From contig JACRHP010000053.1 of the NCBI GenBank assembly GCA_016212005.1, positions 2,402 to 66,401 of the forward strand: 64,000 nt of DNA. Reading direction: 5' to 3'. Source of the stretch: Candidatus Omnitrophota bacterium (GTDB lineage: Bacteria; Omnitrophota; Gorgyraeia; Zapsychrales; Zapsychraceae). The notes below the pieces were generated by a model. That model was not told where the DNA came from. It saw nothing but the letters and a program-made list of their open reading frames with translations, and made no database searches. Below, piece by piece: positions 44,785 through 63,297 of this stretch. The position numbers and the translations under genes are program-made. Position 1 is the stretch's first letter, and each line of letters starts with the position of its first letter.

Positions 44785-45902
44785 TCCCGACGCGACGTGT
44801 TCTTGCTTTTTCTTTTTTTTATCTTGTTCTCTTATGCGCACCGGGGCAAGCGCAGCAGCCCCTGCCCATTGAGTCCATCAATCTTCCGCCGGGATTTAAG
44901 ATCGCAATTTACGCCAACCGTGTCCCCAATGCCCGGTCGATGGCGTTAAGCCCTGAGGGGACGTTATTTGTCGGCTCGCGCACGGCCGGGAACGTCTACG
45001 CCCTGCGCGATGAAGACCACGACAACCGGGCCGACAAAGGATATGTCCTCGCGCAAGGATTGAACATGCCTAACGGCGTCGCCTTTAAAGACGGCGCGCT
45101 TTATGTCGCGGAAGTTAATCGCGTGTTACGCTTTGACAATATCGAGAAGAATTTGGAGCACCCGCCGAACCCCGCGGTCGTTAACGACACTTTCTCCAAA
45201 GATACCTGGCACGGTTGGAAATTCATCCGTTTCGGTCCCGGTGGAAAACTCTACGTGCCTGTCGGCATGCCATGCAACGTCTGCGAGCGTTTAGACGACC
45301 CGCGCTATGGCTCCATTATGCGGATGAATCTCGACGGCAGCGGGCTGGAAGTTTTCGCGCAGGGGATCCGCAACAGTGTGGGCTTCGACTGGGACCCGCC
45401 AACGGGTGAGCTTTGGTTCACGGACAACGGCCGCGACATGCTCGGCGACGATTTGCCTCCGGATGAGCTCAACCACGCGCCGCAGTCCGGCATGCACTTC
45501 GGCTTTCCGTATTGCCACGGCAAAAATATTGCCGACCCCGAATTCGGCAAAAAACACAGCTGCGCCGAGTTCAACCCCGCCGCGCAGGAACTGGGGGCGC
45601 ACGTGGCGGCCCTGGGGATGCGATTTTACACCGGGGACATGTTTCCGGCCGAGTACCATAACCAGATATTTATCGCCCAGCACGGGTCGTGGAACAGAAG
45701 TAAAAAGGTCGGTTATCGCATCATGCTGGTACGTCTGAAGGACAACAAACCGGTCAGTTACGAAGTTTTTGCCGAAGGTTGGAACCAGGGGGAGGACGTC
45801 TGGGGCCGGCCAGTCGACATCCAGCAGATGCCGGACGGATCGCTGCTTGTTTCGGACGACCACGCGGGCGCGATTTACCGGATCACGTACCGTCCTGATT
45901 AA
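44781..45902 (+). CDS. PQQ-dependent sugar (sorbosone/glucose) dehydrogenase-like beta-propeller, secreted
   Basis: Signal peptide. PPGFKIAIYA..PNARSMALSPEGTLFVG, LWFTDNGRD and DELNH..G.HFGFPYCHG motifs. ATGA overlap with the upstream stop. Confidence 0.8.
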   Translation: MIPTRRVLAFSFFYLVLLCAPGQAQQPLPIESINLPPGFKIAIYANRVPNARSMALSPEGTLFVGSRTAGNVYALRDEDHDNRADKGYVLAQGLNMPNGVAFKDGALYVAEVNRVLRFDNIEKNLEHPPNPAVVNDTFSKDTWHGWKFIRFGPGGKLYVPVGMPCNVCERLDDPRYGSIMRMNLDGSGLEVFAQGIRNSVGFDWDPPTGELWFTDNGRDMLGDDLPPDELNHAPQSGMHFGFPYCHGKNIADPEFGKKHSCAEFNPAAQELGAHVAALGMRFYTGDMFPAEYHNQIFIAQHGSWNRSKKVGYRIMLVRLKDNKPVSYEVFAEGWNQGEDVWGRPVDIQQMPDGSLLVSDDHAGAIYRITYRPD

Positions 45903-45973: not shown

Positions 45974-46693
45974 ATGAACGGGTCTTCTTCCCATAGCCGG
46001 TCTTCCATCGGTAAAAAACAGCTCGTCGCCGCCACAGGGTTGTTCCTGATCCTGTTCGTCGTGGCCCACCTCGCGGGGAACTTGTTCATTTACGGCGGCC
46101 CCGAGGCCTTCAACGGTTACGCCAAAAAGCTCGTGGGCCTGCGCCCGGGGCTTTATTTTCTTGAGGCGGCGCTTCTGGTCGTGTTTCTGATCCATCTGGA
46201 CGCTACCGCGCGGCTTGTGCTTGAGAACCTCCGGGCCCGGCCAACCGGATATCGGCAGGGTGCCCCGGCCGGAGACCGGCAGGGGCACAGCGCCGCCGGG
46301 GGCTCGTTCGCCTCGCGGCTGATGCCCTGGACAGGCGCGGTGATCGTTGCCTTTGTCATCTGGCATCTGCTGGATTTTACGTTCGTCGACCGCGACGGCC
46401 CGGCCGGCATCCTGCCCGACGGCCGCAGTTACGGTTTGTTCGGCGTGGTGTACAATTCCCTCGGGAACCCGGTCCATTGCGTTTTATATATCGCCGCGAT
46501 GCTGTGCGTCGGCACGCATTTGAGCCACGGTATCCAGAGCTTTATCCAGACCTTTGGGCTCGTCGGCGAACGCCGCCTGCCGGCCGTGCGCCGGATCAGT
46601 AACGCCCTGGGAATTGCCATCGCGCTGGCGTACAGTTCGATCCCGATTTACGTGCAGTTATCGTTCTGGGTCTTTAGCAGAAGAGGCGTCTAG
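45974..46693 (+). CDS. sdhC: Succinate dehydrogenase/fumarate reductase cytochrome b subunit (single-subunit b558 type)
   Basis: Five hydrophobic helices with conserved His ([28 protein letters not shown]), immediately upstream of sdhA. Confidence 0.75.
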
Positions 46694-46706
46694 CAGAACA
46701 TTAAAA

Positions 46707-48623
46707 ATGGAAACCCTTAACGCGAAAATTCCGGCAGGTCCTCTTAAAGACAAGTGGATCAGTCACAAAGATAAAATCAAGCTGGTCAACCCGGCTAACA
46801 AGCGCAAGTACCGCGTGATCGTCGTCGGCACCGGCCTCGCCGGCGCCTCGGCGGCCGCCTCGCTCGCCGAGCTCGGGTATAACGTCGAGGCCTTCTGTTT
46901 CCAGGACAGCCCGCGCCGGGCCCACAGCATCGCGGCCCAGGGGGGGATCAACGCGGCCAAGAATTATCCCAACGACGGCGACAGTGTTTACCGTCTGTTC
47001 TACGACACGATCAAGGGCGGGGATTTCCGTTCGCGCGAGGCCAACGTCTATCGTCTCGCGGAAGTCAGCAACGGCATCATCGACCAGTGTGTCGCCCAGG
47101 GCGTGCCCTTCGCCCGCGAATATTCCGGGTATCTGGACAACCGTTCCTTCGGCGGGGCGCAGGTCTCGCGCACCTTTTACGCGCGCGGACAGACCGGCCA
47201 GCAGCTTCTCCTGGGCGCGTACAGCGCTTTAATGAAGGAAGCCGGCAAGGGGACGCTCAAGATACATCCGCGCACGGAAATGCTCGACCTCGTCGTTGTT
47301 GACGGCAAGGCGACGGGGATCATCGCACGGTGTCTGTTGACCGGCAAGACCAGCGCGCACGCGGCCGACGCGGTTGTCCTGGCGACCGGCGGTTACGCCA
47401 ACGTCTTTTATCTTTCCACCAACGCCAAGGCGAGCAACGTGACCGCGATCTGGCGCGCGCACAAAAAAGGGGCCTTTTTCGCCAACCCCTGTTACACGCA
47501 GATCCACCCCACCTGCATCCCGGTGCACGGGGATTACCAGTCGAAGCTGACCCTGATGAGCGAGAGCCTGCGTAATGACGGCCGTGTCTGGGTGCCGAAA
47601 AACAAGGGCGACAGCCGTCCGCCTTCCGCGGTCCCGGAGAGTGATCGCGATTATTTTCTGGAACGCAAATACCCGGGTTTCGGCAACCTTGTCCCGCGCG
47701 ATCTGGCCTCGCGCAACGCCAAAGAACAGTGCGACGAAGGCAAGGGGGTTGGCCCGACGGGCCAGGCGGTCTATCTAGACCTGGGCGAATCCATCGGGCG
47801 CCTGGGCCGGGACGTTATCCGCGAGCGCTACGACAATTTGTTTGAAATGTATGAACGCATCACGGGTGTCGACACTTACAAGGAGCCGATGATGATCTAC
47901 CCGGCGCCCCATTACACGATGGGCGGGCTGTGGGTCGATTACAATTTGATGAGCAACCTCCCGGGACTTTTCGTCGTCGGTGAGGCGAATTTTTCCGACC
48001 ACGGCGCCAACCGCCTGGGCGCGAGCGCCCTGATGCAGGGGCTTGCCGACGGGTATTTTATCCTGCCGTACACGATCGGCGATTATCTGGCGATCCAGCC
48101 GCCGGGAAAAGCGGACACGGAGCACCCGGCGTTCGCGCAGGCCCGCGAGGCCGCGGCCCGGCGCACGGGGGACCTTTTGCAGATCAACGGCAAGAGAACG
48201 CCGGATGAATTCCACCGCGAGCTGGGCCGGCTGTTATGGGACAAGTGCGGGATGTCCCGGCGCGAGGACGGATTAAAGGAAGCCCTGAAAAAGATCCCCG
48301 CGGTCCGCGAGGAGTTCTGGAAGGACCTGCGTGTCCCCGGCAGCGGCGAGGAGCTCAACCAGGCCCTTGAGCGCGCGGGGCGCGTGGCGGATTTTCTCGA
48401 GTTCGCCGAGCTGATGGTTCGCGACGCCCTGCACCGGCGAGAATCCTGCGGCGGGCATTTCCGCGAGGAGTCCCGGACCTCCGAGGGCGAGGCCCTGCGC
48501 GACGACGAAAATTTTTCCTACGTCGCGGCCTGGGAGTTCAAGGGCGCGGGCAGGGATCCGGTGTTGCACAAAGAACCGCTCGCGTTTGAAGAAGTCCATT
48601 TGGCAACGAGAAATTACAAATAG
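46707..48623 (+). CDS. sdhA: Succinate dehydrogenase/fumarate reductase flavoprotein subunit
   Basis: [17 protein letters not shown] motif, [14 protein letters not shown] (covalent-FAD His region), HYTMGGL and [11 protein letters not shown]. Confidence 0.9.
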
Positions 48624-48710
48624 GTCACAACGACACAAAGTCACAAAGTCACAAGGTCACAAGGTCACCAGGAAAAACCGGGTGACGTGGTGACTGGTGA
48701 CATGGTGACC
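48622..48710. repeat. Modular palindrome, GTCAC type, between sdhA and sdhB
   Basis: Left arm has six units: aggtcac-aacgacac-aaagtcac-aaagtcac-aaggtcac-aaggtcacc. Loop is aggaaaaacc. Right arm has four units: gggtgac-gtggtgac-tggtgac-atggtgacc. The sdhB RBS tcaggag follows. Confidence 0.85.
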
Positions 48711-48720
48711 TCAGGAGAAT

Positions 48721-49491
48721 ATGGCTAAAACAATCAACCTCATTCTTAATGTCTGGCGCCAGAAAGGCGCGCAAGATAAAGGCCGCTTCGAGGTTTACAA
48801 GGCCGACGGGATCGACACGGACATGTCGTTTCTCGAGATGCTGGATGTCGTCAACGAGCGTCTTATGAAGGAAGGCAAGGAGCCCATCGCCTTTGACCAT
48901 GATTGCCGGGAAGGGATCTGCGGCGCGTGCGGGGCGGTCGTCAACGGCCGGCCCCACGGGCCGATGGCCAAGACGACGCTCTGCCAGCTGCACATGCGCC
49001 GTTTCAAGGACAACGACACGGTCACCATCGAACCCTGGCGCGCGCGGGGGTTCCCCATCGTCAAAGATCTGGTGGTGGACCGTTCGGCCTTCGACCGGAT
49101 CATGGCTTCGGGCGGGTTTATATCGGTGAAGACCGGGTCGGCGCCGGAGGCCAACGCGGTCCCCGTCCGGCGCCGGGACGCGGAGACGGCGATGGACGCC
49201 GCGGCCTGCATCGGCTGCGGGGCGTGCGTGGCCGCCTGCCCCAACGCATCGGCGATGCTTTTTGTCGGCGCGAAGGTCAGTCACTTCGGCCTCCTGCCCC
49301 AGGGCCGGGTCGAGGCGAAAGAACGCGTGCGCGGGATGGTCGCCCGGATGGACGCCGAGGGCTTCGGCAACTGCTCCAACCATTACGAATGCGAGGCCGC
49401 CTGCCCCAAAGGGATCAGTGTCTCGACTATCGCCCGGATGAACCGGGAATACCTTTCTTCCCAGGAGATGATATGGACAAAAGAATCGTGA
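48721..49491 (+). CDS. sdhB: Succinate dehydrogenase/fumarate reductase iron-sulfur subunit
   Basis: CREGICGAC (2Fe-2S), [12 protein letters not shown] (4Fe-4S) and [12 protein letters not shown] (3Fe-4S) motifs. Confidence 0.9.
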
Positions 49492-50276: not shown

Positions 50277-51593
50277 ATGACGACCATGTCGTATAATTTA
50301 TTGTTCATCTATGTTTTTCCGTTGTTGTTTGTGAGTGTCGTCTACGCGCTGTACCGACGGCAACGTGAACAAAAAAATCTGGCGCTTCAAAAAGATGAAT
50401 TTGACGCCGGATTGATTGAGCCTCCCTCCCTGCATCCCCGGATCGACCCGGCCAAATGCCTCGGCTGCGGGGCCTGTGTTACGGCCTGCCCGGAACAGAC
50501 CGTCCTGGGACTGATCGACGGCAAGGCCCAGTTGATCGCCCCGACCCGCTGCATCGGACACGGCGCGTGCAAGACGGCGTGTCCGTTTGACGCCATCTCG
50601 CTTGTTTTCGGCACGGAAAAAAGAGGGATGGATATCCCTTTTGTCCAGCCGAATTTTGAAACCAACGTCCCCGGCATTTTTATCGCCGGTGAGCTGGGCG
50701 GCATGGGACTTATCCGTAACGCTGTTGAGCAGGGGCGTCAGGCCATGGATGCTATCAGCGGAAAACTGCGGCAGGCGCTCAAAGCGGAAGGGATCTACGA
50801 TGTGGTGATTATCGGCGCCGGCCCGGCCGGGTTTTCCGCTTCGCTGGCGGCGATCGCCCATAAACTGAATTATCTGACGCTGGAACAGGAAAGTTTCGGC
50901 GGGATGGTGGCCCATTATCCACGCGGCAAAGTTGTTATGACCCAGCCTGCGGAGTTACCTCTTATCGGCAAGATGGACTTCAGGGAAATCAGCAAGGAAG
51001 GATTGCTGGAATTCTGGCAAAAGGCCAGGGCGCGCGCGGGCGTGCGGATCAGCTTTAATGAGCAGGTCGAGAGAATTTTCAAGGAAGACGACCATTGGGT
51101 AATCAAAACATTTAAAGGGGAATACAAGGCGCGCGCGGTATTGCTCGCCATCGGCCGCCGGGGAACGCCGCGAAAGCTCGGAGTCCCGGGTGAGGAAAAA
51201 TCAAAGGTCGTTTACCGGCTGATCGATCCGCAGCAGTATCGCTCCATGCAGGTGCTGGTCGTCGGCGGCGGCGACAGCGCCCTGGAGGCGGCCGCCTCGC
51301 TGGTTGATGTCGAGAAAACGACAGTCACGCTTTCTTATCGGGGCGACGCCTTCGGCCGCGCCCGGCAGAAAAACCGCGAAAAAGTGCAGGCCGCCAGCCG
51401 GGACGGACGTTTGAAGAGCATCCTTAGATCCAACGTCAAGGAGATCCGCGACCGGGAAGTTGTTCTCGAGCAGGAAGGCCGGGAACTGATAGTTCCCAAC
51501 GATGCCGTGATCGTCTGCGCCGGCGGTATTTTACCCGCCGTATTCTTAAAGGAAACAGGTGTCGAGGTTGAGACGAAATATGGGACGGCATAA
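50277..51593 (+). CDS. Membrane-anchored 2x[4Fe-4S] ferredoxin-domain / FAD-NAD(P)-binding oxidoreductase (thioredoxin-reductase-like fold)
   Basis: N-terminal TM helix (LLFIYVFPLLFVSVVYALY). CLGCGACVTACP and CIGHGACKTACP ferredoxin motifs. DVVIIGAGPAGFSA and VLVVGGGDSALEAA dinucleotide motifs. Confidence 0.75.
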   Translation: MTTMSYNLLFIYVFPLLFVSVVYALYRRQREQKNLALQKDEFDAGLIEPPSLHPRIDPAKCLGCGACVTACPEQTVLGLIDGKAQLIAPTRCIGHGACKTACPFDAISLVFGTEKRGMDIPFVQPNFETNVPGIFIAGELGGMGLIRNAVEQGRQAMDAISGKLRQALKAEGIYDVVIIGAGPAGFSASLAAIAHKLNYLTLEQESFGGMVAHYPRGKVVMTQPAELPLIGKMDFREISKEGLLEFWQKARARAGVRISFNEQVERIFKEDDHWVIKTFKGEYKARAVLLAIGRRGTPRKLGVPGEEKSKVVYRLIDPQQYRSMQVLVVGGGDSALEAAASLVDVEKTTVTLSYRGDAFGRARQKNREKVQAASRDGRLKSILRSNVKEIRDREVVLEQEGRELIVPNDAVIVCAGGILPAVFLKETGVEVETKYGTA

Positions 51594-53592
51594 AAAATTG
51601 CGACGTAATTTTTTTTTGATTTTGATCATTATGACGACGGCCGTGACGACGGCAATGGCGGGGGAGAATGTTCCGGAAGAAGCAAAACGGGCCGTTCGCA
51701 TGCGTGAATATACGAAAGCTGCCGGGTTGTTCCAGGGGCTGGCAGAACAGGGCGACGCGGACGCGCAGTATCAGCTGGGAATTCTTTATCAGCAAGGCAA
51801 AGGGGTTCCCAAAGACCACGAACAGGCGTTCCAATGGTTTCAAAAGGCGGCGGAAAGCGGACACGTGAAAGCTCAATACAGTTTGGCTACCATGTACGAA
51901 AACGGTTGGGGTGTTACCGCTGACGAACAATACGCTGCCAGCTGGTATCAGAAGGCGGCTGACCAGGGATATCCGCAGGCCATCGCCAGAGTCAAGGAAA
52001 TCCAGGTTAAGGGTTTCGTGAGTGAGCGCAAGGCGAACTTTTCCCGGGAAGAATTATTTTTGCTGGCCGCGGGAGACGGCGATATCCCCGGCCTTGGACG
52101 GTCGATAGATGGCGGGGTTGATATTAATACGCGCGATCGTTTCGGCCGCACGGCGCTGATGGAGGCGGTCCGGAATGGCTATGGGGAAGTTGTTCGTTTT
52201 TTGATCCAAAAAGGCGCTGATCCGGAAATATTTAATAGTGAAGGGGACAACGCGCTTTTGATCGCCGCCGGCAAGGGATCGGATGAGCTGGCGCGCGTGC
52301 TGGTGGACGCCGGCGCCGGGATCGACGCGGCCAACCGCTACGGGTATACGCCGTTGATGCTGGCGGTCCAGCGCGATGATCTCGCGCTGGTCGAATTTTT
52401 CCTCGGGCACGGCTGCGACGTGGCCAGGGAAAATGTCGAGGGACAAAATGCCTTGCATATCGCCCGGGTTAAAGGATATGAGGATATAGTACAGCGGTTA
52501 CTGGCGACGGGGAAGGTCGCGCTGGTCTCCCCAAAGCAGAAGGAAGATTCCCTGGCGGCGGTCGTAGCGAAACTCAAGACCGCCAAGGAGCTCAATGAGA
52601 ATGCGCCCTTTGGAAAATGGCCGCCGTTATCCCTGGCGGCCTGGCGCGGGGAAACGGAACTTGTCCGCCATCTTCTGGCCGGCGGTGTCGACGTCAACGC
52701 GGTATCGACGGATGGTTACACGGCCTTGAGCCTGGCCTCCTGGAAAGGGCATGATGAGGCGGTGGAGATCCTTCTTGACGCCAAGGCTAAAATGTTTCCG
52801 GCCGCCGATGAAAATATCTCCGCGCTTGTCCTGGCGGCCCAAAACGGCCATGATGGAGTGGTGCGTCGTTTGCTGGAGGGATATCCGGCGGTCATCCAGG
52901 ACGCGCCGGGCATTGTCGACAAGGCCATGCACGCGGCCATTGAAGATGGCCACGGGAAAGTAGTGCAGGCGATCCTGCGGCAGGGTGTTCTGTTGAGCAT
53001 CCCCGAATCAAAAAAGGCGCCATATCTTTTGTCCGCGGCGAAAAAAGGCGACGTCGCCATGATCGATATATTTCTTGATTACGGGGTGGATATCAATACA
53101 ATCGATGAGGACGGGAAAACGGCCCTCATACTGGCCGCGGAGGCGGGGCAAGGCGATGTCGTCCAATATTTGCTTGAGAAAAAAGGCGTTGCGCTGGATT
53201 TGCGGGACCATCAGGGGCATACGGCGCTTTTGGCCGCGGCGGCTACCGGCCGGGAGGATATCGTTTCCCTGCTTGTGAAAACGGGCAGTGCTATTGATAT
53301 CCCGGATGCGGGCGGGAATACGCCCTTATTGCTGGCGGCCGGAGCGGGGCATTCCGCCATCGTCGAAGAATTGATCCGAAAAGGCGCCCGCGTTGACGCG
53401 ACCAACGCCGCGGGCAACAGCGCCCTGGTGGCCGCGATCAAACGCGAAGATAAAGTTGTCGCCAAAATATTGCTGGATCACGGCGCCAACCCGTATCTTC
53501 CCTTAAAGAAGCTCGACCATATCAGTGAAGAGATGAAAGAGTTGTTGGGACAATACCGGAGCACAAAAAAATGGCTCAAGGAAATATTCTGA
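51580..53592 (+). CDS. Secreted Sel1-repeat + ankyrin-repeat protein
   Basis: Signal peptide (FFLILIIMTTAVTTAMA). Three Sel1-like repeats (DADAQYQLGILYQQGKGVPKD...). Then roughly a dozen or more ankyrin repeats (G.TALM.A...G....V..L...GAD pattern). Confidence 0.8.
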   Translation: MGRHKKLRRNFFLILIIMTTAVTTAMAGENVPEEAKRAVRMREYTKAAGLFQGLAEQGDADAQYQLGILYQQGKGVPKDHEQAFQWFQKAAESGHVKAQYSLATMYENGWGVTADEQYAASWYQKAADQGYPQAIARVKEIQVKGFVSERKANFSREELFLLAAGDGDIPGLGRSIDGGVDINTRDRFGRTALMEAVRNGYGEVVRFLIQKGADPEIFNSEGDNALLIAAGKGSDELARVLVDAGAGIDAANRYGYTPLMLAVQRDDLALVEFFLGHGCDVARENVEGQNALHIARVKGYEDIVQRLLATGKVALVSPKQKEDSLAAVVAKLKTAKELNENAPFGKWPPLSLAAWRGETELVRHLLAGGVDVNAVSTDGYTALSLASWKGHDEAVEILLDAKAKMFPAADENISALVLAAQNGHDGVVRRLLEGYPAVIQDAPGIVDKAMHAAIEDGHGKVVQAILRQGVLLSIPESKKAPYLLSAAKKGDVAMIDIFLDYGVDINTIDEDGKTALILAAEAGQGDVVQYLLEKKGVALDLRDHQGHTALLAAAATGREDIVSLLVKTGSAIDIPDAGGNTPLLLAAGAGHSAIVEELIRKGARVDATNAAGNSALVAAIKREDKVVAKILLDHGANPYLPLKKLDHISEEMKELLGQYRSTKKWLKEIF

Positions 53593-54485
53593 CACACCCT
53601 TCTTCCCGCGGTGAGGCGTCATCATTTTTTCATGTCTTCTTGAAACACCTCAGCGATTCGGCGTCGTTTTTGTTTTCTCTGGTCATTATTTTTATCCTTT
53701 TCGTCGGATGGCGCTTGCGGTCGTATCATCTGATTACGGCCGAGCACGGCGTTGGCTACGCATTGGGGGTCATTGGCGTTCTCATGATGCTCGCCCTTTT
53801 AATTTATCCTTTGCGCAAAAGATATCCCTCTTTGCGTTTTCTGGGGGGCGTGAAGATGTGGTTCCGCGTCCACATGGTGCTGGGCATCCTCGGGCCGGTA
53901 TGCATTTTATTCCACGCCAATTTCCAATTGGGGTCGCTTAACAGCAACGTGGCCCTGTTCTCGATGCTGATCGTGGCCACCAGCGGCCTCATCGGACGGT
54001 ATATTTATACCAAAATCCATTACGGGTTGTACGGACAGCGCGCGACACTGCTTGAGCTGCAGAAAAATTTTGGTCTTCAAAAAGATGAATTGAGCCCGCA
54101 GTTCGCGCTTGTTCCCGGCGTTCAGGAAATACTTTTCCCCTTCGCCCAGGAACTGTTGACGCCGTCGGGATCCCTTTCCCTCAGCATCCGGCGTGTTTTG
54201 AGCACGGGCTGGCGCGCCAGGCTGTTGCGCTGGAATATCCGCGGCATCGTCCACGCTTATCTGCGGCAACACACCCGGGACCACAAGTGGAGCTGGTCCC
54301 GGCAGCGCGGCATGCAGCGCCAGATGCAGCGTAAAGTCTCCCAATTCCTCACCCAGACCGCGAGGGTCAGCCAGTTCGGTTTCTATGAGCGGCTGTTTTC
54401 GCTTTGGCACGTTCTGCATTTGCCGCTCGCCTGCGTGATGGCGGTCGCGGTCGTGATCCACGTTATCGCGGTCCATCTTTATTAG
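53571..54485 (+). CDS. Hypothetical polytopic membrane protein with conserved intramembrane histidines (possible b-haem carrier)
   Basis: About five predicted TM helices. His pairs lie in helices (FRVHMVLGILGPVCILFHANF; WHVLHLPLACVMAVAVVIHVIAVH). A long basic cytoplasmic loop is present. No family recognised. Confidence 0.5.
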   Translation: MAQGNILTHPSSRGEASSFFHVFLKHLSDSASFLFSLVIIFILFVGWRLRSYHLITAEHGVGYALGVIGVLMMLALLIYPLRKRYPSLRFLGGVKMWFRVHMVLGILGPVCILFHANFQLGSLNSNVALFSMLIVATSGLIGRYIYTKIHYGLYGQRATLLELQKNFGLQKDELSPQFALVPGVQEILFPFAQELLTPSGSLSLSIRRVLSTGWRARLLRWNIRGIVHAYLRQHTRDHKWSWSRQRGMQRQMQRKVSQFLTQTARVSQFGFYERLFSLWHVLHLPLACVMAVAVVIHVIAVHLY

Positions 54486-54623: not shown

Positions 54624-56327
54624 ATGGCAAGATGGATCATTTATTGGGTGGTGGTGGCAACCGCAGGGGTGTTCGCCTTTAAGGTTTTTCAAAGAGATTC
54701 CCTCCAGACATTGGTCACACCCGGGGCTTTGACCAAAGCGCACGCCCAATACGAAAAAAAATGTGACGCGTGTCACGCGCCTTTTAGCAAGGAAACCCAG
54801 AACAATTTGTGCGTTGAGTGTCACAAGACAATCGGGGAAGAGATGAAAAACAGTCTGGGGCTTCATGGGCGGCTGGCGGCGGTAAAGGAAGGTAAATGCA
54901 CCCGTTGTCATACTGATCACCGGGGGCGGGATTTTGATATTGTCGGCCTGGTGAAGGAGGGCTTCACCCATCAGTTCACCGATTTCACGCTGGCCGGCGC
55001 CCATACCCGTCCGGGTATCGGCTGTGACGCCTGCCACGCACCGGGGAAGAAGTTCCGTGAGGCGCCGGTGGATTGTTTCAGCTGTCATCAGAAAGATGAC
55101 GCCCATCAGGGAAAGTTGGGCGCGCAATGTTCCCAGTGCCACAACGAAACCTCGTGGCAGAAGACCTATTTTGACCACCGCCAGACGCGTTTCCCGTTAA
55201 AAGGCAAACATGAGCAATTAGCTTGTGACGCGTGCCATGCCGACCGGACGTACAAAAACGCGCCCGTTGAATGCGCGGGGTGTCATTTGATCAACGATAT
55301 CCATGACAGTCCCCTGGATGAAAAATGTTCCCGGTGCCATGTGGAAGATGACTGGAAAAAGGTTTCTTTCGATCATAACAAGGAGACAAAATTTGTTCTG
55401 GAAGGAGCGCATACCCAAACGGCCTGTGACGCCTGCCACACAGGGTTTTCTTTTAAGGGAAATAAGCCGGGAGCGCAATGTATTGACTGCCATCAGGGGG
55501 ATGATATCCATAAGGGCCGCTATGCTACCCGCTGTGATCAATGTCACGTTCTGGCGTCATGGAAAGAAGTCCGTTTTGATCACGCCAGGGACACAAAATT
55601 TCAGCTTAAAGGCGCGCACAGCCAGGTGAAATGTGAAGCGTGCCACCAAGAGGCCGCTTCCGGGATAAAACTTGAGACCTCCTGCGCGAGTTGTCATCAA
55701 GGGGACGACATCCATAAAGGGGAACTGGGGGCACAATGTTCCCAGTGTCACAACGAGAATGGCTGGGGGGAGCGGATAGTTTTTGACCATGATCTGACGA
55801 AGTTTCCTTTGATCGGATTGCACGCGGTCACTTCGTGTGATGAATGTCATCTTTCCCCGACGTTCAAGGATGTCAGGACCGATTGCCTTTCTTGCCATCG
55901 GGACGACGATGAACATCGCGGGACGCTCGGGAGCGGTTGCGGCCAGTGCCATAATCCCAACGGCTGGCGGTTGTGGGAATTCGACCATGATAACCAGACG
56001 AAATTCAAGCTGGAGGGAGCCCACGCGGGGCTAAAGTGTCAGGAATGTCACACCCGGCCCATGGACGGGCAGGTGGTCAAACAAAAATCGGACTGTTTGG
56101 AATGTCACGCGAAAGATGATGCGCATCAGGGACGTTTTGGTGTACAATGTGCTCTGTGCCATTTTGCCGATTCATTTAAAAGGATCAAAGAGTTCCACAA
56201 TGTGCCGGAAACAAAAAATTGTTTCAGCTGTCATGAGCAAGACGATGTCCATGACGGGCATTTCGGCCGGCAGTGCGGCCAGTGCCATACTGTCGAATCC
56301 TTTAAAAAGATCATTATGAGCAACTGA
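54624..56327 (+). CDS. Multihaem c-type cytochrome, 23 CxxCH motifs, repeated c7/c3-like trihaem modules
   Basis: I counted 23 CxxCH motifs in the translation. A recurring module CxxCH...CxxCH(x)DD(x)H.G..G..CxxCH...FDH occurs about seven times. The N-terminal hydrophobic segment MARWIIYWVVVATAGVFAF has no obvious cleavage site. Confidence 0.9.
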   Translation: MARWIIYWVVVATAGVFAFKVFQRDSLQTLVTPGALTKAHAQYEKKCDACHAPFSKETQNNLCVECHKTIGEEMKNSLGLHGRLAAVKEGKCTRCHTDHRGRDFDIVGLVKEGFTHQFTDFTLAGAHTRPGIGCDACHAPGKKFREAPVDCFSCHQKDDAHQGKLGAQCSQCHNETSWQKTYFDHRQTRFPLKGKHEQLACDACHADRTYKNAPVECAGCHLINDIHDSPLDEKCSRCHVEDDWKKVSFDHNKETKFVLEGAHTQTACDACHTGFSFKGNKPGAQCIDCHQGDDIHKGRYATRCDQCHVLASWKEVRFDHARDTKFQLKGAHSQVKCEACHQEAASGIKLETSCASCHQGDDIHKGELGAQCSQCHNENGWGERIVFDHDLTKFPLIGLHAVTSCDECHLSPTFKDVRTDCLSCHRDDDEHRGTLGSGCGQCHNPNGWRLWEFDHDNQTKFKLEGAHAGLKCQECHTRPMDGQVVKQKSDCLECHAKDDAHQGRFGVQCALCHFADSFKRIKEFHNVPETKNCFSCHEQDDVHDGHFGRQCGQCHTVESFKKIIMSN

Positions 56328-58213
56328 TGTTTGTGCCGGGGCAGTTATTGCAGATGTCAAAAAGGATCATTTTCGTTTTGTTGTTCGTTTTTTTGTGGGT
56401 TCCGCGGGCTGACGCGCAGCGCATTGACTTTGACCATTTTGCCGCGGGATTCCCTTTGACGGGAGCCCACGCTGGACTTGACTGCGAAAGCTGTCATGTC
56501 CGCGGTATTTTTAAAGGAACACCCACGCAGTGCGCTTCCTGTCATAAGCAGGGAGGGAACGTTTCCGCCACCCCGACGCCCGCCAACCATATCAACACCA
56601 CCAATGAATGCGAGGCTTGCCATACGACCGAGAGCATGAGCACGGTCACCCGCCTGGACCATTCGGCCGTTCTGGGAACTTGCGTCAGTTGTCACAATGG
56701 CGTCAAGGCAGCCGGAAAATCAGCGACCCATATTATGAGTTCAAAGGATTGCGCCCAGTGCCATACGACCATGAACTGGGGTTCGGCCCGTTTCGATCAC
56801 GCGGCGGTCACTGGAAAATGCAGCAGTTGCCATAACGGCACCAGTGCCACGGGCAAATCGGCCAGACATATTCCCAGTTCCAATAATTGCGATGATTGTC
56901 ACACGACGACGAGCTGGAGCGGCGCGCGGTTCGATCACAGTTCAGCAACCGGGACATGCAGCAGTTGTCATAACGGGACGATGGCAACGGGCAAATCGCC
57001 GACGCATATCCCCAGTTCGAACAATTGCGGGGATTGTCACACGACGACAAGCTGGAGCTCGGCGCGTTTTGACCACGGTGCGGTGACGGGAAGCTGCTCC
57101 AGTTGCCACAATGGAACAACGGCCACAGGTAAATCGGCCCGGCACATGAGTACGACCAACGCGTGCGCGGATTGCCATAGTACCAGTACCTGGATACCGG
57201 TCGTACGGGTGGACCATGCGTCAGTCAACGGGACCTGTTACAGCTGCCACAACGGGACGACGGCTCCGGGCAAGATCCCGACGCACATCGCGAGTTCGAA
57301 TAACTGCGATGATTGTCACACGACAACAAGCTGGAGCGGCGCGCGGTTCGACCACGGCGCGGTGACGGGAAGTTGCAGCAGCTGCCATAACGGGACGAGC
57401 GCGACCGGCAAATCGCCAACGCATATGAATACGGCCAACACGTGTGAGGATTGCCACAGCGTGAACACGTGGTCTCCGGTCATGCGGGTGGACCACTCCG
57501 CGGTCAACGGGACCTGTTACGGTTGTCACAGCGGGACAACGGCCACGGGTAAAACTCCGACGCACATCGCGAGTTCGAATAACTGCGATGATTGTCACAC
57601 GACCAACGCGTGGACGCCTGCGGTCTTTGACCATGGTTCGACAACAGGGACGTGTTTCAGTTGCCACAACGGAACGACGGCCACGGGTAAAACTCCGACG
57701 CACATCGCGAGCTCCAATACGTGCGACGATTGCCACACGACGGTCGCCTGGATCCCGGCCAATTTTGACCACGGGTCGGTAACGGGAAGCTGCAGCAGCT
57801 GTCATAACGGGACAATGGCGACCGGAAAACCAGGCAACCATTTTGTGACCACTCTGCAATGCGATGAGTGTCACACCGTGTCCGCATGGTTGCCGACGCG
57901 TCCCTATAATCATTCCTCCGGTGAGTATCCGGGAGACCACCGCTCCAGCGTCACCTGTCTGGATTGTCACAAATCCAATAGCCAGGCGGCAACATGGACC
58001 TACGCCAGTTACCGGCCGGACTGCGCGGGCTGTCATGCCGGAAGATATAAGCAGGATGCGCACAAGAAATATGAAACCCCGACGACGGCCTTTTACACGG
58101 TGAGCGAACTGCGGGATTGCGCCGGTTCCTGCCACCTGTACACCGACAGCGGTATGACGACGGTCAAGAAATCCAGGACGGGAGAGCATCGCGTTTCAAA
58201 CGGCGACTTCTGA
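56327..58213 (+). CDS. Multihaem c-type cytochrome, 23 CxxCH + 1 CxxxCH, doubled-CXXCH tandem repeats
   Basis: Signal peptide (alternative start M10: MSKRIIFVLLFVFLWVPRADA). Nine ~46-aa units follow the pattern FDH-x6-CSSCHNGTxATGKxxxHIxSSNNCDDCHTTxxW. The terminal motif is CAGSCH. Confidence 0.9.
   Translation: MFVPGQLLQMSKRIIFVLLFVFLWVPRADAQRIDFDHFAAGFPLTGAHAGLDCESCHVRGIFKGTPTQCASCHKQGGNVSATPTPANHINTTNECEACHTTESMSTVTRLDHSAVLGTCVSCHNGVKAAGKSATHIMSSKDCAQCHTTMNWGSARFDHAAVTGKCSSCHNGTSATGKSARHIPSSNNCDDCHTTTSWSGARFDHSSATGTCSSCHNGTMATGKSPTHIPSSNNCGDCHTTTSWSSARFDHGAVTGSCSSCHNGTTATGKSARHMSTTNACADCHSTSTWIPVVRVDHASVNGTCYSCHNGTTAPGKIPTHIASSNNCDDCHTTTSWSGARFDHGAVTGSCSSCHNGTSATGKSPTHMNTANTCEDCHSVNTWSPVMRVDHSAVNGTCYGCHSGTTATGKTPTHIASSNNCDDCHTTNAWTPAVFDHGSTTGTCFSCHNGTTATGKTPTHIASSNTCDDCHTTVAWIPANFDHGSVTGSCSSCHNGTMATGKPGNHFVTTLQCDECHTVSAWLPTRPYNHSSGEYPGDHRSSVTCLDCHKSNSQAATWTYASYRPDCAGCHAGRYKQDAHKKYETPTTAFYTVSELRDCAGSCHLYTDSGMTTVKKSRTGEHRVSNGDF
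56645..57887 (+). repeat. Intragenic tandem repeat, ~138 nt x ~9 (one di-haem unit each)
   Basis: Long near-identical DNA stretches recur. For example, aataattgcgatgattgtcacacgacgacgagctggagcggcgcgcggttcga at ~56880 matches aataactgcgatgattgtcacacgacaacaagctggagcggcgcgcggttcga at ~57297, with another copy at ~57577. Confidence 0.85.
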
Positions 58214-58265: not shown

Positions 58266-60392
58266 ATGAATGGTTTTTCGCGGGTCAGAAAATCAGCAAT
58301 TCCCGGGACGTGTCTTTGGGCTATCTTGTTTTTTTCAGCGAGCGTGGCGCGTGCCGGCTTGATCGAGGAGACGCAGGTCGCTCCCCAGCCGGACGGCTAT
58401 CGGGTGGATATCCATTTTCTTCTTTCCATCCGTTACCAGAGCCACACGCCCACCGGGAAAGGCAAGGTGTTCCGGGTGCAGCTGCGCGCGACCAATTACA
58501 AGAGCCTGACTGACGAGGAAGTGGCGCTTTTGCGCGACCGCGTCAGCTTGAGCTGGGACCAGGCGATCGGAATCCCGGTTGGCGAGATTACTTACGAGGG
58601 CGGTGACCCGGAACGCCCCGAGATGACCTTTATTTTTACGGAGGATGTGGATATCGAGTTCCAGGGCAGCGGCGACTCGCGCACGTTGAGCGCCATCGTA
58701 AAAACTGCCGTGAAACCACCCTCTATGCCGGAAGAGGTCCCGTTTGCTGGAGAAATTCCCTCGGGTGAAGGAGATTCTGGGTTGATGAGGGAGGCCAGCG
58801 TATCTATGGCGCTGGGAGAGTATACCCGCGCCATTCAGATTTATACCAAAATCTTGCGTACTGCCGAGGGAGACACCAAAAAGAAAGCCCAGGAATTTTT
58901 GGGCCTGGCGCGGGAACGTAACGGCCAGCTGGCGCACGCCAAGGCGGAGTATGAAAAATATCTCGCGGAGTTTCCCGAAGGCGCGGACGCGGAGCGGGTA
59001 CGCCAGCGTCTGGCAGGGCTGGTTACCGCGGCCAAAGCGCCCAAAGAACCGCTCAAGGAAGCCAAGCGCGCTGAACGGGCCCCATCCCGCGCGAGCAAAT
59101 GGGACAAGCAGATGTACGGGAACTTCTCTCAGTTCTATTTCCGGGACCAAACAGTGCCGGAAGCGGGTGAAACACAGGTTAACCGTGATGACCTTACTTC
59201 AGACTTGGACCTCAACAGCCGCTGGCGCAATGAGAAGCTGGACCTTCGCGGCAAATTTACGACAAGCTATCAGAATAATTTTGTGACCGGAGAGCAGGAC
59301 GAAGACTCCATCAGTGCCTTGTTCTTTGAAGGGAAGATCAAGAAATACGGACTTCTGGGCCGCTTTGGGCGCCAGTCGCGCACGACGGGCGGCGTCCTGG
59401 GCCGGTTCGACGGCGCGCACCTCGCGCTGGATATCGCCCCGAAACTCACGTTCAATACCGTTTGCGGTTTTCCCGTGGACAGTTCCCAGAACACGTATGT
59501 CGAGTATGCCCGGAGGTTCTGCGGGGTCAGCGCCGATCTGGGGACGTTCCGGGAGCACTGGGACTTGAGCACCTTTTTCATCGATCAGGGTAATAAAGGG
59601 CTGGTTGACCGCCGGGCCATCGGGACGGAACTCCGTTATTTTGACGACGTCAAAGGGTTCTTTAACCTGTTTGATTACGACGTGTTCTACGAGCGGCTGA
59701 ATATTTTTCTTTTTAACGGCCACTGGAAGGCGTTATCGGCCACGGATATTAACTTCGTCCTGGATTACCGCAAGAGCCCGTTACTGACGACCAATAACGC
59801 TATCCAGGGGCAGGGGGTCAACAAGATCGCCCAGTTGTTCGACAATTTTTCGGATGATGAACTATACGCCCTGGCCGAAGACCGCACGGCCGTCAGCAAG
59901 TCGATGACTGTCGGTGTGACGCAAGACGTGAAAAAGGATGTCCAGCTGACCGGGGAAATGACCGTCTCCGAGACCGAGGGCACGGTCGCCTCCGGCGGCG
60001 TTGACGCCGTTCCCGGCACCGGCAAGGAATATTCCTATTCAACGCAGCTGATCACCAATAACGTCCTCGTGGAAAATGACGTTATTATTACGGGGTTACG
60101 TTATTCGGACGCCCAGACAAACCATACCACTTCGTTTACGATCAACGCGAGATATCCGTATCTCACCAAACTCCGGTTTATCCCGAAACTCCGTCTGGAC
60201 TTCCGCGAAGACAAGGGAAGCGATGACAACCGGTTCCTGGCGCGCCCCACGATGCGCATCGATTACAATTTCAAGAAATGGATGCGTTTTGAAGTCGAGG
60301 GCGGGTTCGAATGGGTGGATGAGGTTTCTTCCGGCGTTTCGCAAACATCTACGGAGCAATTTATTTCCGCGGGGTATCGTCTTACCTTTTAG
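58266..60392 (+). CDS. Outer-membrane protein: signal peptide, N-terminal soluble region with TPR-like helices, C-terminal ~430-aa predicted beta-barrel
   Basis: Signal peptide (ILFFSASVARA). TPR-like segment (ALGEYTRAIQIYTKIL...AKAEYEKYLAEFPEG). The C-terminal half has alternating beta-strand pattern and ends in SAGYRLTF, an OMP-type terminal Phe. Confidence 0.65.
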   Translation: MNGFSRVRKSAIPGTCLWAILFFSASVARAGLIEETQVAPQPDGYRVDIHFLLSIRYQSHTPTGKGKVFRVQLRATNYKSLTDEEVALLRDRVSLSWDQAIGIPVGEITYEGGDPERPEMTFIFTEDVDIEFQGSGDSRTLSAIVKTAVKPPSMPEEVPFAGEIPSGEGDSGLMREASVSMALGEYTRAIQIYTKILRTAEGDTKKKAQEFLGLARERNGQLAHAKAEYEKYLAEFPEGADAERVRQRLAGLVTAAKAPKEPLKEAKRAERAPSRASKWDKQMYGNFSQFYFRDQTVPEAGETQVNRDDLTSDLDLNSRWRNEKLDLRGKFTTSYQNNFVTGEQDEDSISALFFEGKIKKYGLLGRFGRQSRTTGGVLGRFDGAHLALDIAPKLTFNTVCGFPVDSSQNTYVEYARRFCGVSADLGTFREHWDLSTFFIDQGNKGLVDRRAIGTELRYFDDVKGFFNLFDYDVFYERLNIFLFNGHWKALSATDINFVLDYRKSPLLTTNNAIQGQGVNKIAQLFDNFSDDELYALAEDRTAVSKSMTVGVTQDVKKDVQLTGEMTVSETEGTVASGGVDAVPGTGKEYSYSTQLITNNVLVENDVIITGLRYSDAQTNHTTSFTINARYPYLTKLRFIPKLRLDFREDKGSDDNRFLARPTMRIDYNFKKWMRFEVEGGFEWVDEVSSGVSQTSTEQFISAGYRLTF

Positions 60393-60471
60393 CCCGGCAA
60401 CCGCCCTCTTGCGCCGGGGGCTGAATTTTCCTGTTGCAATCTCCTCCAGGTTTGGTATTCTAACCGTATCT

Positions 60472-61848
60472 ATGAGCCTCACCATTGACCGGGAAACCGT
60501 TGCCAAATTCGACGTCCCGGGCCCGCGGTACACGAGTTACCCCACCGCGCCGGTCTGGTCGACGGATGTCAACGCCGCCGTTTACGCCGAGAAACTCGCC
60601 GCCTTCGGCCGCAGCAACAAGACGCTTTCCTTGTATATCCATATCCCGTTTTGCCAGTCGCTGTGCACGTACTGTGGCTGCAACGTCGTCATCCGCAAAC
60701 AGGACGAACGTTTCGGCGACGAATACATTGAATATCTTTTCCGGGAAATGGAACTGGTGCACCGCGCCATCGGCAACCGTCCGAGGGTCCGCCAGCTGCA
60801 CTGGGGCGGGGGCACGCCGACGTTCTTGAACGAATCCCAGATCGAGCGGCTGTATAAAGGCACGCTAAAATATTTTGACGTCGACCCCGCCGGCGAGATC
60901 GCCATCGAGATCGACCCGCGCACCATCGACAAGTCCAAAGTCCGGAAATTGCGCGCGCTGGGGTTCAACCGTGTTTCGATGGGCGTGCAGGATTTCAGCG
61001 AAGACGTGCAGAAAGAGGTCAACCGCTGGCAGCCCTATCCAATTGTGAAAGAATTTAATGACTGGTGCCGGGAGCTTAAATTCGCCTCGGTCAATTTTGA
61101 CCTGATCTACGGCCTGCCGAGACAAACGCCGGAAAGTTTCTCCGCGACCGTCGAGAAGGTGGTCGCCCTGGCGCCCGAGCGCGTCGCGCTCTACAGCTTC
61201 GCCTACGTCCCGTGGCTGAAGCGGCACCAGCGCAAGATCGACGAATCTCTTTTGCCCTCCGCTGACGCGAAGCTGGATATTTTCCTGCGCGCCCGCGAGC
61301 GGTTCCTGGAAAGCGGCTACCAGGCGATCGCGATGGACCATTTCGCGCTCGCGGACGACGATTTGGCCAAGGCCTTTGAGGCCGGCACGCTCTACCGGAA
61401 CTTCATGGGCTACACGGTCAAGCCGGCCGACGAATATATCGGCCTGGGGGTCACCTCGATCGGTTTTCTGGAAAACACCTACGCGCAGAACGAGAAGGCC
61501 CTCCCGGCGTATTACGCCGCGCTGGACGCCGGCCGCCTGCCGGTGGAGCGCGGCAAGGTCCTCACCGACGACGACCGCGCGCGCCGGTGGGCAATAAATT
61601 CCCTGATGTGCCGGTTCCGGATCGACAAGCGGGATTTTCAAAAGGAATTTCATGCCGACTTTGACCGGTATTTCCAGGACGAACAGGCGCATATCCGCCG
61701 GTGCGTCCAGGACGGCCTCTTGCGGGTGGAAAACGGTTCGCTCGAAGTTTGCGGGCCGGGGAAACTGTTTGTCCGTAACGTATGCATGGGGTTCGACCAC
61801 TATTTGCAGCAAAAGGACGCGCCGGCGCGTTTTTCAAGGACCGTCTGA
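60472..61848 (+). CDS. hemN: Oxygen-independent coproporphyrinogen III oxidase (radical SAM)
   Basis: PRYTSYPTA motif, radical SAM box HIPFCQSLCTYCGC and GGGTPTFL. Start at ATG 60472; the ORF from 60076 overlaps the upstream gene out of frame. Confidence 0.9.
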   Translation: MSLTIDRETVAKFDVPGPRYTSYPTAPVWSTDVNAAVYAEKLAAFGRSNKTLSLYIHIPFCQSLCTYCGCNVVIRKQDERFGDEYIEYLFREMELVHRAIGNRPRVRQLHWGGGTPTFLNESQIERLYKGTLKYFDVDPAGEIAIEIDPRTIDKSKVRKLRALGFNRVSMGVQDFSEDVQKEVNRWQPYPIVKEFNDWCRELKFASVNFDLIYGLPRQTPESFSATVEKVVALAPERVALYSFAYVPWLKRHQRKIDESLLPSADAKLDIFLRARERFLESGYQAIAMDHFALADDDLAKAFEAGTLYRNFMGYTVKPADEYIGLGVTSIGFLENTYAQNEKALPAYYAALDAGRLPVERGKVLTDDDRARRWAINSLMCRFRIDKRDFQKEFHADFDRYFQDEQAHIRRCVQDGLLRVENGSLEVCGPGKLFVRNVCMGFDHYLQQKDAPARFSRTV

Positions 61849-62280: not shown

Positions 62281-63297
62281 ATGAAAGAGTCATCATTCCT
62301 CCAGGCCTTCCAGGGCACCAACAAGCAGATCCCCGTCTGGTTCATGCGCCAGGCCGGGCGGTATCTTCCCGAATATCAGGCCCTGAAGAAAAAGCATTCC
62401 CTGCAGAAAATGTTTGACACGCCGGAGTTGGCCGCGGAAATCACCTGTCTTCCTGTCGATATTTTGGGCGTCGACGCCGCGATTTTATTCGCCGATATCC
62501 TGACGCTGCCCAAACAAATGGGCTTTGATATCCGCTTTGATGACCGCCACGGGCCGGTCATCGGGGGTACGGTCGCCGGCGACCTGCACCACCGTGAAGA
62601 CATCCATGACGCGGACGATTTTTCCGGCCTGACGAAAACGATCCGTTTGGTCAACGAACAGCTTGACGGCCGGGTCCCCTTGATCGGCTTTGCCGGATCG
62701 CCTTTTACGGTGTTGACGTATTTGATCGAAGGCGGTTCCTCCGTCAACTTCACCCGGACGTTCCGGTTCATCAACGAACATCCCGTGCATTTTCAGGCGT
62801 GGATGGAATTGTTGACGCAAAACACGGTCCGTTACCTGACCGCGCAGAAAGAGGCGGGCATCAAGGCCTTTCAACTGTTCGACAGCTGGGCGGGGATCCT
62901 GCGGCCGGCGGATTTCGCCCGCTGGGTTTTGCCTTTCGCGCGCCGGATCTTCGCGGAGGTCGATCTGCCGTCGATCTATTTTGTGCGCAACTGCGCGCAT
63001 CTGCTGGCGCTGATGGACCAATCGGAAGCCGATTTCTTATCCGTCGACCACACGGTTGTCCTCGGGCACCACACGGTCATCGAGAAAACGAAAAAAGGCA
63101 TTCAGGGGAATCTGTTCAACGGCCTTTTGTACGCGGACGACGCCACGCTAGCCAGGGAAGTGCGCGATGTTTTAGTCGGCGGCGTCAAACACGGCCGGTA
63201 CATCTTCAATCTAAGCCACGGCGTTTTCCCCGATACGGACCCCGACAAGCTCAAGTTCATCGTGGAGCAGGTGCATTCGTTTAAGAAGAAAACTTAA
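62281..63297 (+). CDS. hemE: Uroporphyrinogen decarboxylase
   Basis: PVWFMRQAGRYLPEY signature, FADILT and FDSWAG. Confidence 0.9.
   Translation: MKESSFLQAFQGTNKQIPVWFMRQAGRYLPEYQALKKKHSLQKMFDTPELAAEITCLPVDILGVDAAILFADILTLPKQMGFDIRFDDRHGPVIGGTVAGDLHHREDIHDADDFSGLTKTIRLVNEQLDGRVPLIGFAGSPFTVLTYLIEGGSSVNFTRTFRFINEHPVHFQAWMELLTQNTVRYLTAQKEAGIKAFQLFDSWAGILRPADFARWVLPFARRIFAEVDLPSIYFVRNCAHLLALMDQSEADFLSVDHTVVLGHHTVIEKTKKGIQGNLFNGLLYADDATLAREVRDVLVGGVKHGRYIFNLSHGVFPDTDPDKLKFIVEQVHSFKKKT

Follow-up and report, generated by a model that had tools for sequence, protein, structure and literature searches.

What would an outer-membrane barrel with a periplasmic tetratricopeptide repeat (TPR) module be doing directly downstream of two giant cytochrome genes? 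The question is raised by an open reading frame (ORF) at positions 58266-60392, on the + strand, of a 64,000-nucleotide stretch of DNA (the whole of which we call the window) from Candidatus Omnitrophota bacterium (assembly GCA_016212005.1, contig JACRHP010000053.1). A preliminary description, made from the sequence alone, had argued from genomic context that the encoded protein works with the cytochromes as a new type of cytochrome-associated barrel, and had kept a role in export as a real alternative. We put at roughly 0.7 the probability that the protein is the outer-membrane component of a porin–cytochrome conduit of the PCC3 type, PCC3 being a putative porin–cytochrome cluster described by He et al. 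(2017, Front Microbiol 8:1584; PMC5566968); this assignment is set by published descriptions and not by alignment with a reference porin. The association with cytochromes proves to be deeply conserved, but the supposed novelty of the barrel type does not survive, because the four genes correspond to the published PCC3 cluster in each of its described features. What the locus does add to descriptions of PCC3 is the anatomy of the TPR and N-terminal parts of the porin.

The ORF is intact (708 codons, with an ATG start and a GAAGGGG Shine-Dalgarno sequence 7 nt 5' of it), and its product is 100% identical to a protein from a Candidatus Omnitrophica metagenome-assembled genome (MAG) that is annotated merely as 'tetratricopeptide repeat protein'. 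It is not a chance ORF, because it belongs to a large homologue family: 1,481 matches were found among 8,000 candidates scored in a 90%-clustered database, and 1,237 clusters (at 50% identity) reached E<=1e-30 among 1.84 billion representatives, the relatives occurring in at least 492 species genomes. Two structural models were used, namely a full-length AlphaFold2 model with 46 homologues as input (mean pLDDT 81.9) and a separate model of residues 31-262 (pLDDT 87.1). Together with the sequence and the homologue alignment, they suggest the following layout.

58266-60392, + strand: gene for the putative PCC3-type outer-membrane protein (708 aa), comprising signal peptide, AMIN-like domain, TPR module, linker and 22-strand barrel.
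58266-58355, + strand: Sec signal peptide, residues 1-30, ending at ARA before G and lacking a lipobox; helix at residues 4-23 in the model.
58362-58703, + strand: predicted N-terminal periplasmic beta-sandwich of AMIN-like fold, residues 33-146 (model and Foldseek).
58776-59033, + strand: five-helix TPR module, residues 171-256 (model, sub-gathering Pfam matches, profile and Foldseek matches).
59034-59102, + strand: flexible linker rich in Lys, Pro and Ala, residues 257-279 (pLDDT 35-57).
59103-60389, + strand: predicted 22-strand outer-membrane beta-barrel, residues 280-708, with an invariant C-terminal Phe (DSSP count and homologue alignment).
59778-59888, + strand: helical insert of 37 residues (505-541) between strands 13 and 14, probably extracellular loop 7 (L7), judging from strand parity.

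The anatomy sketched in the preliminary description (signal peptide, beta-rich N-terminal module, TPR-like helices, Lys/Pro/Ala-rich linker and a C-terminal region ending in YRLTF) is thus recovered in every part, only the likeness to AMIN domains needing qualification, as discussed below. The protein is evidently Sec-exported and, on its sequence, is not a lipoprotein, and its C-terminal 429 residues are predicted to form an outer-membrane barrel. DSSP assigns 22 strands across residues 280-707 of the full model, at a pLDDT of about 85-95. Each of the longer strand connections (7, 12, 37 and 15 residues) comes after an odd-numbered strand, as fits an outer-membrane barrel with a periplasmic N-terminus, and the final F708 of the YRLTF end is invariant in the 46 homologues. 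Foldseek comparison of the full model with the PDB returned generic outer-membrane barrels alone, at TM-scores of 0.2-0.32, which are uninformative on family; PDB sequence and profile searches matched the TPR part and yielded nothing for the barrel. The best-conserved barrel segments, each with several invariant residues, are residues 368-383 (nt 59367-59414), a GRQSRxxGGVLGRFDG stretch around what is probably extracellular loop 3, and residues 505-541 (nt 59778-59888), the helical loop 7 with the sequence SPLLTTxNAIQGQGV...LAxDR. In this loop P505, L507, N511, A512, G515, Q516, A537, D539 and R540 are invariant or nearly so in the homologue alignment.

Is the association with cytochromes peculiar to this contig? 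Gene order was examined in the best 80 genomic loci, with flanks of up to 10 kb, by counting CXXCH motifs in ORFs. Where at least 5 kb of upstream sequence was available, 38 of 42 loci had haem-rich ORFs (at least 10 CXXCH) immediately 5' of the barrel gene and on its own strand, and on shorter contigs a haem-rich ORF ran into the contig end in 33 of 36. Downstream regions, taken as controls, contained haem-rich genes in only two of 54 cases, one of which (L006) is a permuted cluster. The order is stereotyped, a cytochrome with about 21 haems being followed by a variable cytochrome and then by the barrel gene. The first of these cytochromes has about 520-590 aa in relatives and, from a tabulation by hand, exactly 21 CXXCH motifs in at least 26 of 31 complete loci, and the second has 15-89 motifs (median 31) and is very variable in length. 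The barrel gene is, in short, the last of a conserved co-directional set that encodes an inner-membrane dihaem-b-like protein, a cytochrome of about 21 haems, a cytochrome of 15-89 haems and the barrel.

Besides Omnitrophota, the family is found in Planctomycetota, Verrucomicrobiota, Nitrospirota, Nitrospinaceae and Desulfobacterota-type MAGs. Barrel relatives in tubeworm endosymbionts adjoin cytochromes of 21 and 47 haems, and across the tubeworm-endosymbiont and Sedimenticolaceae homologues the clusters combine a 21-haem cytochrome with a second one of 19-73 haem motifs. Among the second cytochromes are some very large examples: one of 2,148 aa with 89 CXXCH in an Omnitrophota MAG (L001/L004, 3476-9922) and one of 1,825 aa with 73 CXXCH in a Sedimenticolaceae MAG (L052, 2673-8150). 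The pair were recorded as standing at or above the 85-haem maximum of He et al. (PMC5566968), a mark that the first passes by motif count.

In the window itself, the genes surrounding the barrel gene are as follows.

50277-51593, + strand: membrane-anchored flavoprotein with 2x[4Fe-4S] and an FAD/NAD(P) domain, 438 aa (family matches, tblastn).
51559-53592, + strand: secreted protein with Sel1 and ankyrin repeats, 677 aa, a conserved neighbour (family matches, tblastn).
53571-54485, + strand: putative PCC3 inner-membrane protein, 304 aa, with about five transmembrane (TM) segments (motifs WX3HX13H and SGLIG).
54624-56327, + strand: first multihaem cytochrome, 567 aa, 23 CXXCH by motif count, corresponding to the PCC3 'periplasmic' cytochrome.
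56327-58213, + strand: second multihaem cytochrome, 628 aa, 23 CXXCH and 1 CX3CH by motif count, corresponding to the PCC3 'extracellular' cytochrome.
60403-60421, + strand: weak terminator-like hairpin, 11 nt past the stop codon of the barrel gene (consensus scan only).
60472-61848, + strand: hemN, for an oxygen-independent coproporphyrinogen III oxidase, i.e. haem supply (542.8 bits against a cut-off of 325).

The two ORFs upstream of the barrel gene are therefore multihaem cytochromes, as had been proposed, and the barrel gene starts 52 nt 3' of the second. As described by He et al. (2017), PCC3 consists of a predicted porin, an 'extracellular' cytochrome, a 'periplasmic' cytochrome and an inner-membrane protein. 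The last has about 300 aa and five TM helices, with WX3HX13H on TM3 and TM5 and SGXXG on TM4; the 304-aa protein of the window has WX3HX13H at residues 97 and 279 and SGLIG at residue 138, with hydrophobic segments at matching positions, and matched no Pfam or NCBIfam family. The 'periplasmic' cytochrome has a median of 21 haems and a very low ratio of amino acids to haems (PMC5566968). Its counterpart here has an anchor-like hydrophobic segment at the N-terminus and 24.7 aa per haem, its 23 CXXCH motifs comparing with 21 in most relatives. For the 'extracellular' cytochrome, which is repetitive, rich in T, S, A and G, and has a median of 34 and a maximum of 85 haems (PMC5566968), the second cytochrome is a good counterpart in haem number, in its repeats of about 45 aa and in its T+S+A+G content of 43%, its location being predicted; it has a cleavable signal peptide and no lipobox. 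Finally, the barrel, with its 22-strand model, its 52-nt gap to the nearest cytochrome gene and its 38/42 synteny, takes the place of the porin, for which a PRED-TMBB count in the literature gave 22 strands in Leptothrix cholodnii.

Gene order agrees too. In Sideroxydans lithotrophicus ES-1, which with Leptothrix cholodnii SP-6 provides published examples of PCC3 (Slit_0867-0870 and Slit_1446-1449 in the former), Slit_1446 encodes the inner-membrane protein, 1447 the periplasmic cytochrome, 1448 the extracellular cytochrome and 1449 the porin (PMC12016527, Table 1), and the genes starting at 53571, 54624, 56327 and 58266, all on the + strand, follow the same order. No named Sideroxydans protein was present among the homologues listed, including those from a re-search with a long SPOR-type homologue (P0110).

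Several points weigh against the assignment, or against the function that it implies. PCC3 is itself a predicted system, still 'functionally unverified' in the literature of 2025, in which the 'extracellular' location of the second cytochrome is likewise a prediction; in Sideroxydans ES-1, Fe(II) did not induce the PCC3 clusters, and the proteins of one set went largely undetected in proteomes. Membership was judged against Slit_0867, Slit_1449 and the Leptothrix porin by description and not by alignment. The 22-strand barrel is narrower than MtrB, and the conserved 37-residue L7 could plug its lumen. The likeness of the N-terminal domain to AMIN is weak (E of about 1e-3, TM 0.47 on target) and comes without sequence support. 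Lastly, in two of the 42 long-flank loci (L017 and L038) there is no cytochrome within 10 kb of the barrel homologue.

If the assignment is nonetheless right, how might the parts fit together? The barrel would act as an insulating sheath, much as MtrB does around MtrA, and a thin haem wire would thread it. The likeliest occupant would be the second, MtrA/DmsE-like cytochrome, because its gene abuts the barrel gene and because its best NCBIfam likeness, though below cut-off, is to the DmsE/MtrA decahaem family (95.6 bits). The first cytochrome, with its anchor-like N-terminus, may span the periplasm, as others have previously suggested, and the wire would then link this cytochrome and the inner-membrane protein with a donor or acceptor of electrons outside the cell. 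By a geometric formula, the C-alpha radius is estimated at about 20 A with 22 strands and at about 23.5 A with the 26 strands of a barrel of MtrB size, and on the model the lumen would leave room for a minimal haem chain of the c7/MtrA type, provided that L7 is no plug.

The published account credits PCC3 porins with 'up to 42 transmembrane regions' and a 'large pore' (PMC5566968). The 839-aa homologue of a tubeworm symbiont (tubeworm endosymbionts being among the PCC3 hosts named by He et al.) aligns over query residues 142-708 without large insertions and carries SPOR and TPR modules in front. On this comparison of sequences, the figure of 42 was probably inflated by periplasmic domains, which also suggests that the pore size of PCC3 has been overestimated.

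These periplasmic domains deserve closer attention, as the published PCC3 descriptions that we examined mention neither a TPR nor any other N-terminal module, and a literature search for PCC3 together with tetratricopeptide found nothing relevant. Five helices, in helix-turn-helix repeats that match TPR models, are present at residues 171-256 in both models. Pfam TPR matches in the 708-aa protein are all below the gathering threshold (best E=1.7e-4), but TPR_9 is matched by 31 of the 46 homologues and the TPR of BamD (YfiO) by 14. The closest TPRs are those of CpoB and BamD: profile searches match the module to both, and in Foldseek it superposes on the TPRs of YbgF/CpoB and BamD with an rmsd of 1.4-1.6 A over 84-91 columns. 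The module ranks with the best-conserved parts of the protein (G213, A225, Y229 and R248 are invariant). Because it is as conserved as the 21-haem cytochrome, while the second cytochrome varies widely, we infer that the TPR has as its docking partner the first cytochrome or the place where the two cytochromes meet; its conserved groove would, at all events, receive a conserved partner, most plausibly the first cytochrome.

In front of the TPR, residues 33-146 form eight strands and one short helix, with pLDDT values that lie at 75-87 in the full-length model and exceed 90 in the N-terminal one. Here the suggestion of a loose resemblance to AMIN stands only in part. The AMIN domains of PilQ (B2; 4aqz, E=1.4e-3, TM 0.47 on target) and AmiC (4bin, E=1.8e-3) are weak matches, but are the sole non-TPR domains among the top Foldseek matches of the N-terminal model; on the other hand, Pfam AMIN (PF11741) was matched neither by the 708-aa protein nor by any of the 46 homologues. 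In a large sub-family of homologues of 800-1,000 aa, which includes the tubeworm-symbiont protein, a SPOR domain above the Pfam gathering threshold stands directly before the TPR, and one homologue has SH3b domains. AMIN, SPOR and SH3b are all peptidoglycan-binding modules, and their convergence at one position leads us to infer, by analogy, that the N-terminal domain fastens the barrel to the cell wall. The AMIN-like domain (in relatives, SPOR or SH3b stands in for it or accompanies it) would thus tie the complex to peptidoglycan and might keep its inner- and outer-membrane ends in register.

Could the barrel instead be a translocon or assembly factor, of a Slam-like or usher/TpsB-like kind, whose TPR captures the second cytochrome, unfolded or folded, in the periplasm and whose barrel exports it to the cell surface without afterwards forming part of the wire? 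We regard this as the main rival, a possible but doubtful explanation. A TPR followed by a barrel is the layout of Slam, one of the 46 homologues has a weak TPR_Slam match, and TPRs of the BamD type, matched by the 14 homologues already mentioned, bind client proteins. The second cytochrome, with a plain signal peptide and no lipobox, requires some route across the outer membrane, and in a single neighbourhood (L085) a type II secretion system (T2SS) operon lies near the cluster. Usher barrels (FimD and PapC) also appear among the Foldseek matches, but these are generic (TM <=0.32), and neither the Slam barrel (DUF560, 14 strands) nor the TpsB and BamA barrels (16 strands, with POTRA domains) were matched, the search having covered the protein at E<=1 and the 46 homologues at E<=0.01. 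A one-to-one pairing with cytochromes and the presence of peptidoglycan-binding-type modules better suit a fixed structural complex, and in MtrCAB, the one solved system of this kind, the barrel stays in place as a sheath. HMM results, the number of strands and the genomic setting led us to reject the Slam reading as such.

A general diffusion porin, or an envelope tether like OmpA or Pal, connected with the cytochromes through co-transcription alone, seems very improbable, even though the general porins MOMP, OmpF and OmpK36 head the structural matches and peptidoglycan-binding-type modules are typical of tethers. The TM-scores of those matches are low (0.2-0.3), and the synteny is too strict and spread over too many phyla. 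Of the two loci without cytochromes, which speak for such a protein, one carries less weight than it first appears to. In L017 (9487-11683, Planctomycetales) the barrel gene is N-terminally truncated and lacks the AMIN-like domain, and directly upstream is a 140-aa fragment that is 71% identical to the cluster's flavoprotein. Because this fragment abuts the truncated barrel gene, the locus is better seen as a decayed cluster than as an independent use of the barrel; its sequence suggests that a deletion within the cluster removed the genes for the ankyrin protein, the inner-membrane protein and the cytochromes. L038 is an orphan paralogue of 971 aa, and a further exception, L009, has one small 7-haem protein upstream.

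A polysaccharide-export porin of the BcsC, PgaA or AlgK–AlgE kind, beside cytochromes by chance, is hardly credible and was rejected on HMM results, strand number and genomic context: its sole argument is the layout of TPR plus C-terminal barrel, against which stand 22 strands instead of 16-18, about 2.5 TPRs instead of the long arrays of BcsC and PgaA, cytochromes upstream in 38 of 42 loci, neighbours that are cytochrome, cytochrome-maturation and haem-synthesis genes, the absence of polysaccharide or glycosyltransferase genes from the six neighbourhoods with precomputed Pfam labels, and the absence of any Pfam or NCBIfam match to BcsC, PgaA or alginate-export models (the protein at E<=1, the 46 homologues at E<=0.01). 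Membership of the MtrB family was rejected on the same three kinds of evidence, MtrB_PioB (PF11854) being matched neither by the protein nor by the 46 homologues at those thresholds, and no MtrB chain appearing in the PDB sequence and profile searches or among the top 50 Foldseek matches.

To return to the PCC3-type conduit, it may be larger than the four genes of the published definition. When proteins encoded near the barrel gene in the window were compared by tblastn with 86 loci, the genes for the flavoprotein and the Sel1/ankyrin protein were found adjoining the inner-membrane protein gene in about 30 of them (L006-L086), either co-directional or divergent, and the flavoprotein was more conserved across phyla (55-68% identity) than the barrel (35-55% in the same comparison). 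The flavoprotein has an N-terminal TM helix, two [4Fe-4S] motifs and an FAD/NAD(P) domain like that of thioredoxin reductase and YpdA. Neither gene is mentioned by He et al. (2017), and the conserved adjacency suggests that PCC3 with these two forms a six-gene module.

It is tempting to go further. The conservation of the flavoprotein, and the fact that He et al. (2017) likened the PCC3 inner-membrane protein to the NOX/FRE ferric-reductase domain, raise the idea of an entry point resembling an NADPH oxidase split over two proteins. Through the flavoprotein and the NOX/FRD-like dihaem-b protein, electrons would be exchanged between the haem wire and NAD(P)H or ferredoxin in the cytoplasm, on a path that bypasses the quinone pool; the AMIN/SPOR–TPR–barrel protein would provide a fixed outer docking station, and the Sel1/ankyrin protein a periplasmic scaffold. 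Such a peptidoglycan-anchored, six-gene machine for quinone-independent extracellular electron transfer is a speculation that we think unlikely as a whole. If true, it would imply a quinone-independent route in at least eight named lineages, Omnitrophota among them. Should the flavoprotein and ankyrin genes simply be part of the system, they would have implications for the entry or exit of electrons on the side of the cytoplasm, a question of importance to models of iron oxidation and reverse electron flow.

Some further features of these neighbourhoods may be recorded. The hairpin at 60403-60421 probably marks the end of the operon, although a promoter and terminator scan gave no more sites than shuffled sequence and this weak hairpin was all that it offered after the stop codon. 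Genes for haem supply or cytochrome maturation follow the barrel gene in the Omnitrophota and Planctomycetales loci named here, and in L084: in the window they are hemN (60472-61848) and hemE (62281-63297), in L001 (12141-16831) they are ResB, CcsA, thioredoxin and glutamyl-tRNA reductase, and in L017 (12987-15778) and L084 (12230-15217) ResB and CcsA. A pair encoding DUF6502 and DUF5666 proteins is downstream of the barrel gene in L003 (5847-8305, a Halioglobus MAG), where it follows directly, and in L084 (15242-17293), where it comes after the ResB/CcsA gene; it may be a further accessory pair. The T2SS operon of L085 (12890-22109) is complete (GspD-N) and lies beside the PCC3 cluster on the opposite strand. 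T2SS exports MtrC and OmcA in Shewanella, but this is a single case and the adjacency may be a coincidence. A few kb upstream of the cluster in the window (regions 45974-49491 and 44619-45902) are a succinate dehydrogenase/fumarate reductase set (cytochrome b, flavoprotein and Fe-S subunit) and a beta-propeller resembling glucose/sorbosone dehydrogenases, with an NHL repeat; the former indicates a quinone-linked respiratory chain in this Omnitrophota genome.

Modestly new here, then, are the occurrence of PCC3 in Omnitrophota and other non-proteobacterial lineages, the domain anatomy of the porin, and the six-gene module. PCC3 is among the most widespread of predicted porin–cytochrome systems, and the assignment would extend it to phyla to which, to our knowledge, extracellular electron transfer is not usually ascribed; a literature search on multihaem extracellular electron transfer in Omnitrophota found nothing relevant. 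The combination of barrel, conserved TPR and peptidoglycan-binding-type modules also leads to testable hypotheses on how a wire of more than 40 haems might be held across the envelope.

How, finally, does the protein compare with known systems? With BcsC and PgaA (16 strands) and Slam (14 strands, DUF560) it shares the order of periplasmic TPR and C-terminal barrel, but differs from them in family, in strand number, in its far shorter TPR array and in genomic context. The beta-sandwich at its N-terminus has weak structural matches to the AMIN domains of PilQ and AmiC but no Pfam AMIN match, and at the equivalent position longer relatives of the barrel protein carry the bona fide domain of SPOR proteins. 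MtrCAB, MtoAB and PioAB have in common with it an outer-membrane barrel encoded beside the multihaem cytochrome that it sheathes (which in the present case is a working model) and the sub-threshold DmsE/MtrA likeness of the second cytochrome; MtrB, however, has 26 strands and neither a periplasmic TPR nor an AMIN module, and the MtrCAB system has cytochromes of 10 haems where PCC3-type cytochromes have 21-89, and CymA in place of a dedicated inner-membrane dihaem-b-like protein. From PCC3 as known hitherto the locus differs in its host, an Omnitrophota MAG joined by other phyla, whereas He et al. (PMC5566968) reported Alpha-, Beta- and Gammaproteobacteria only, and in possessing the AMIN-like or SPOR domain, the TPR module, and the flavoprotein and Sel1/ankyrin genes, of which they make no mention. 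It agrees with PCC3 in the following: four components in the same order, the inner-membrane motifs, a cytochrome with about 21 haems at about 25 aa per haem, a variable cytochrome rich in T, S, A and G, and a barrel of 22 predicted strands.

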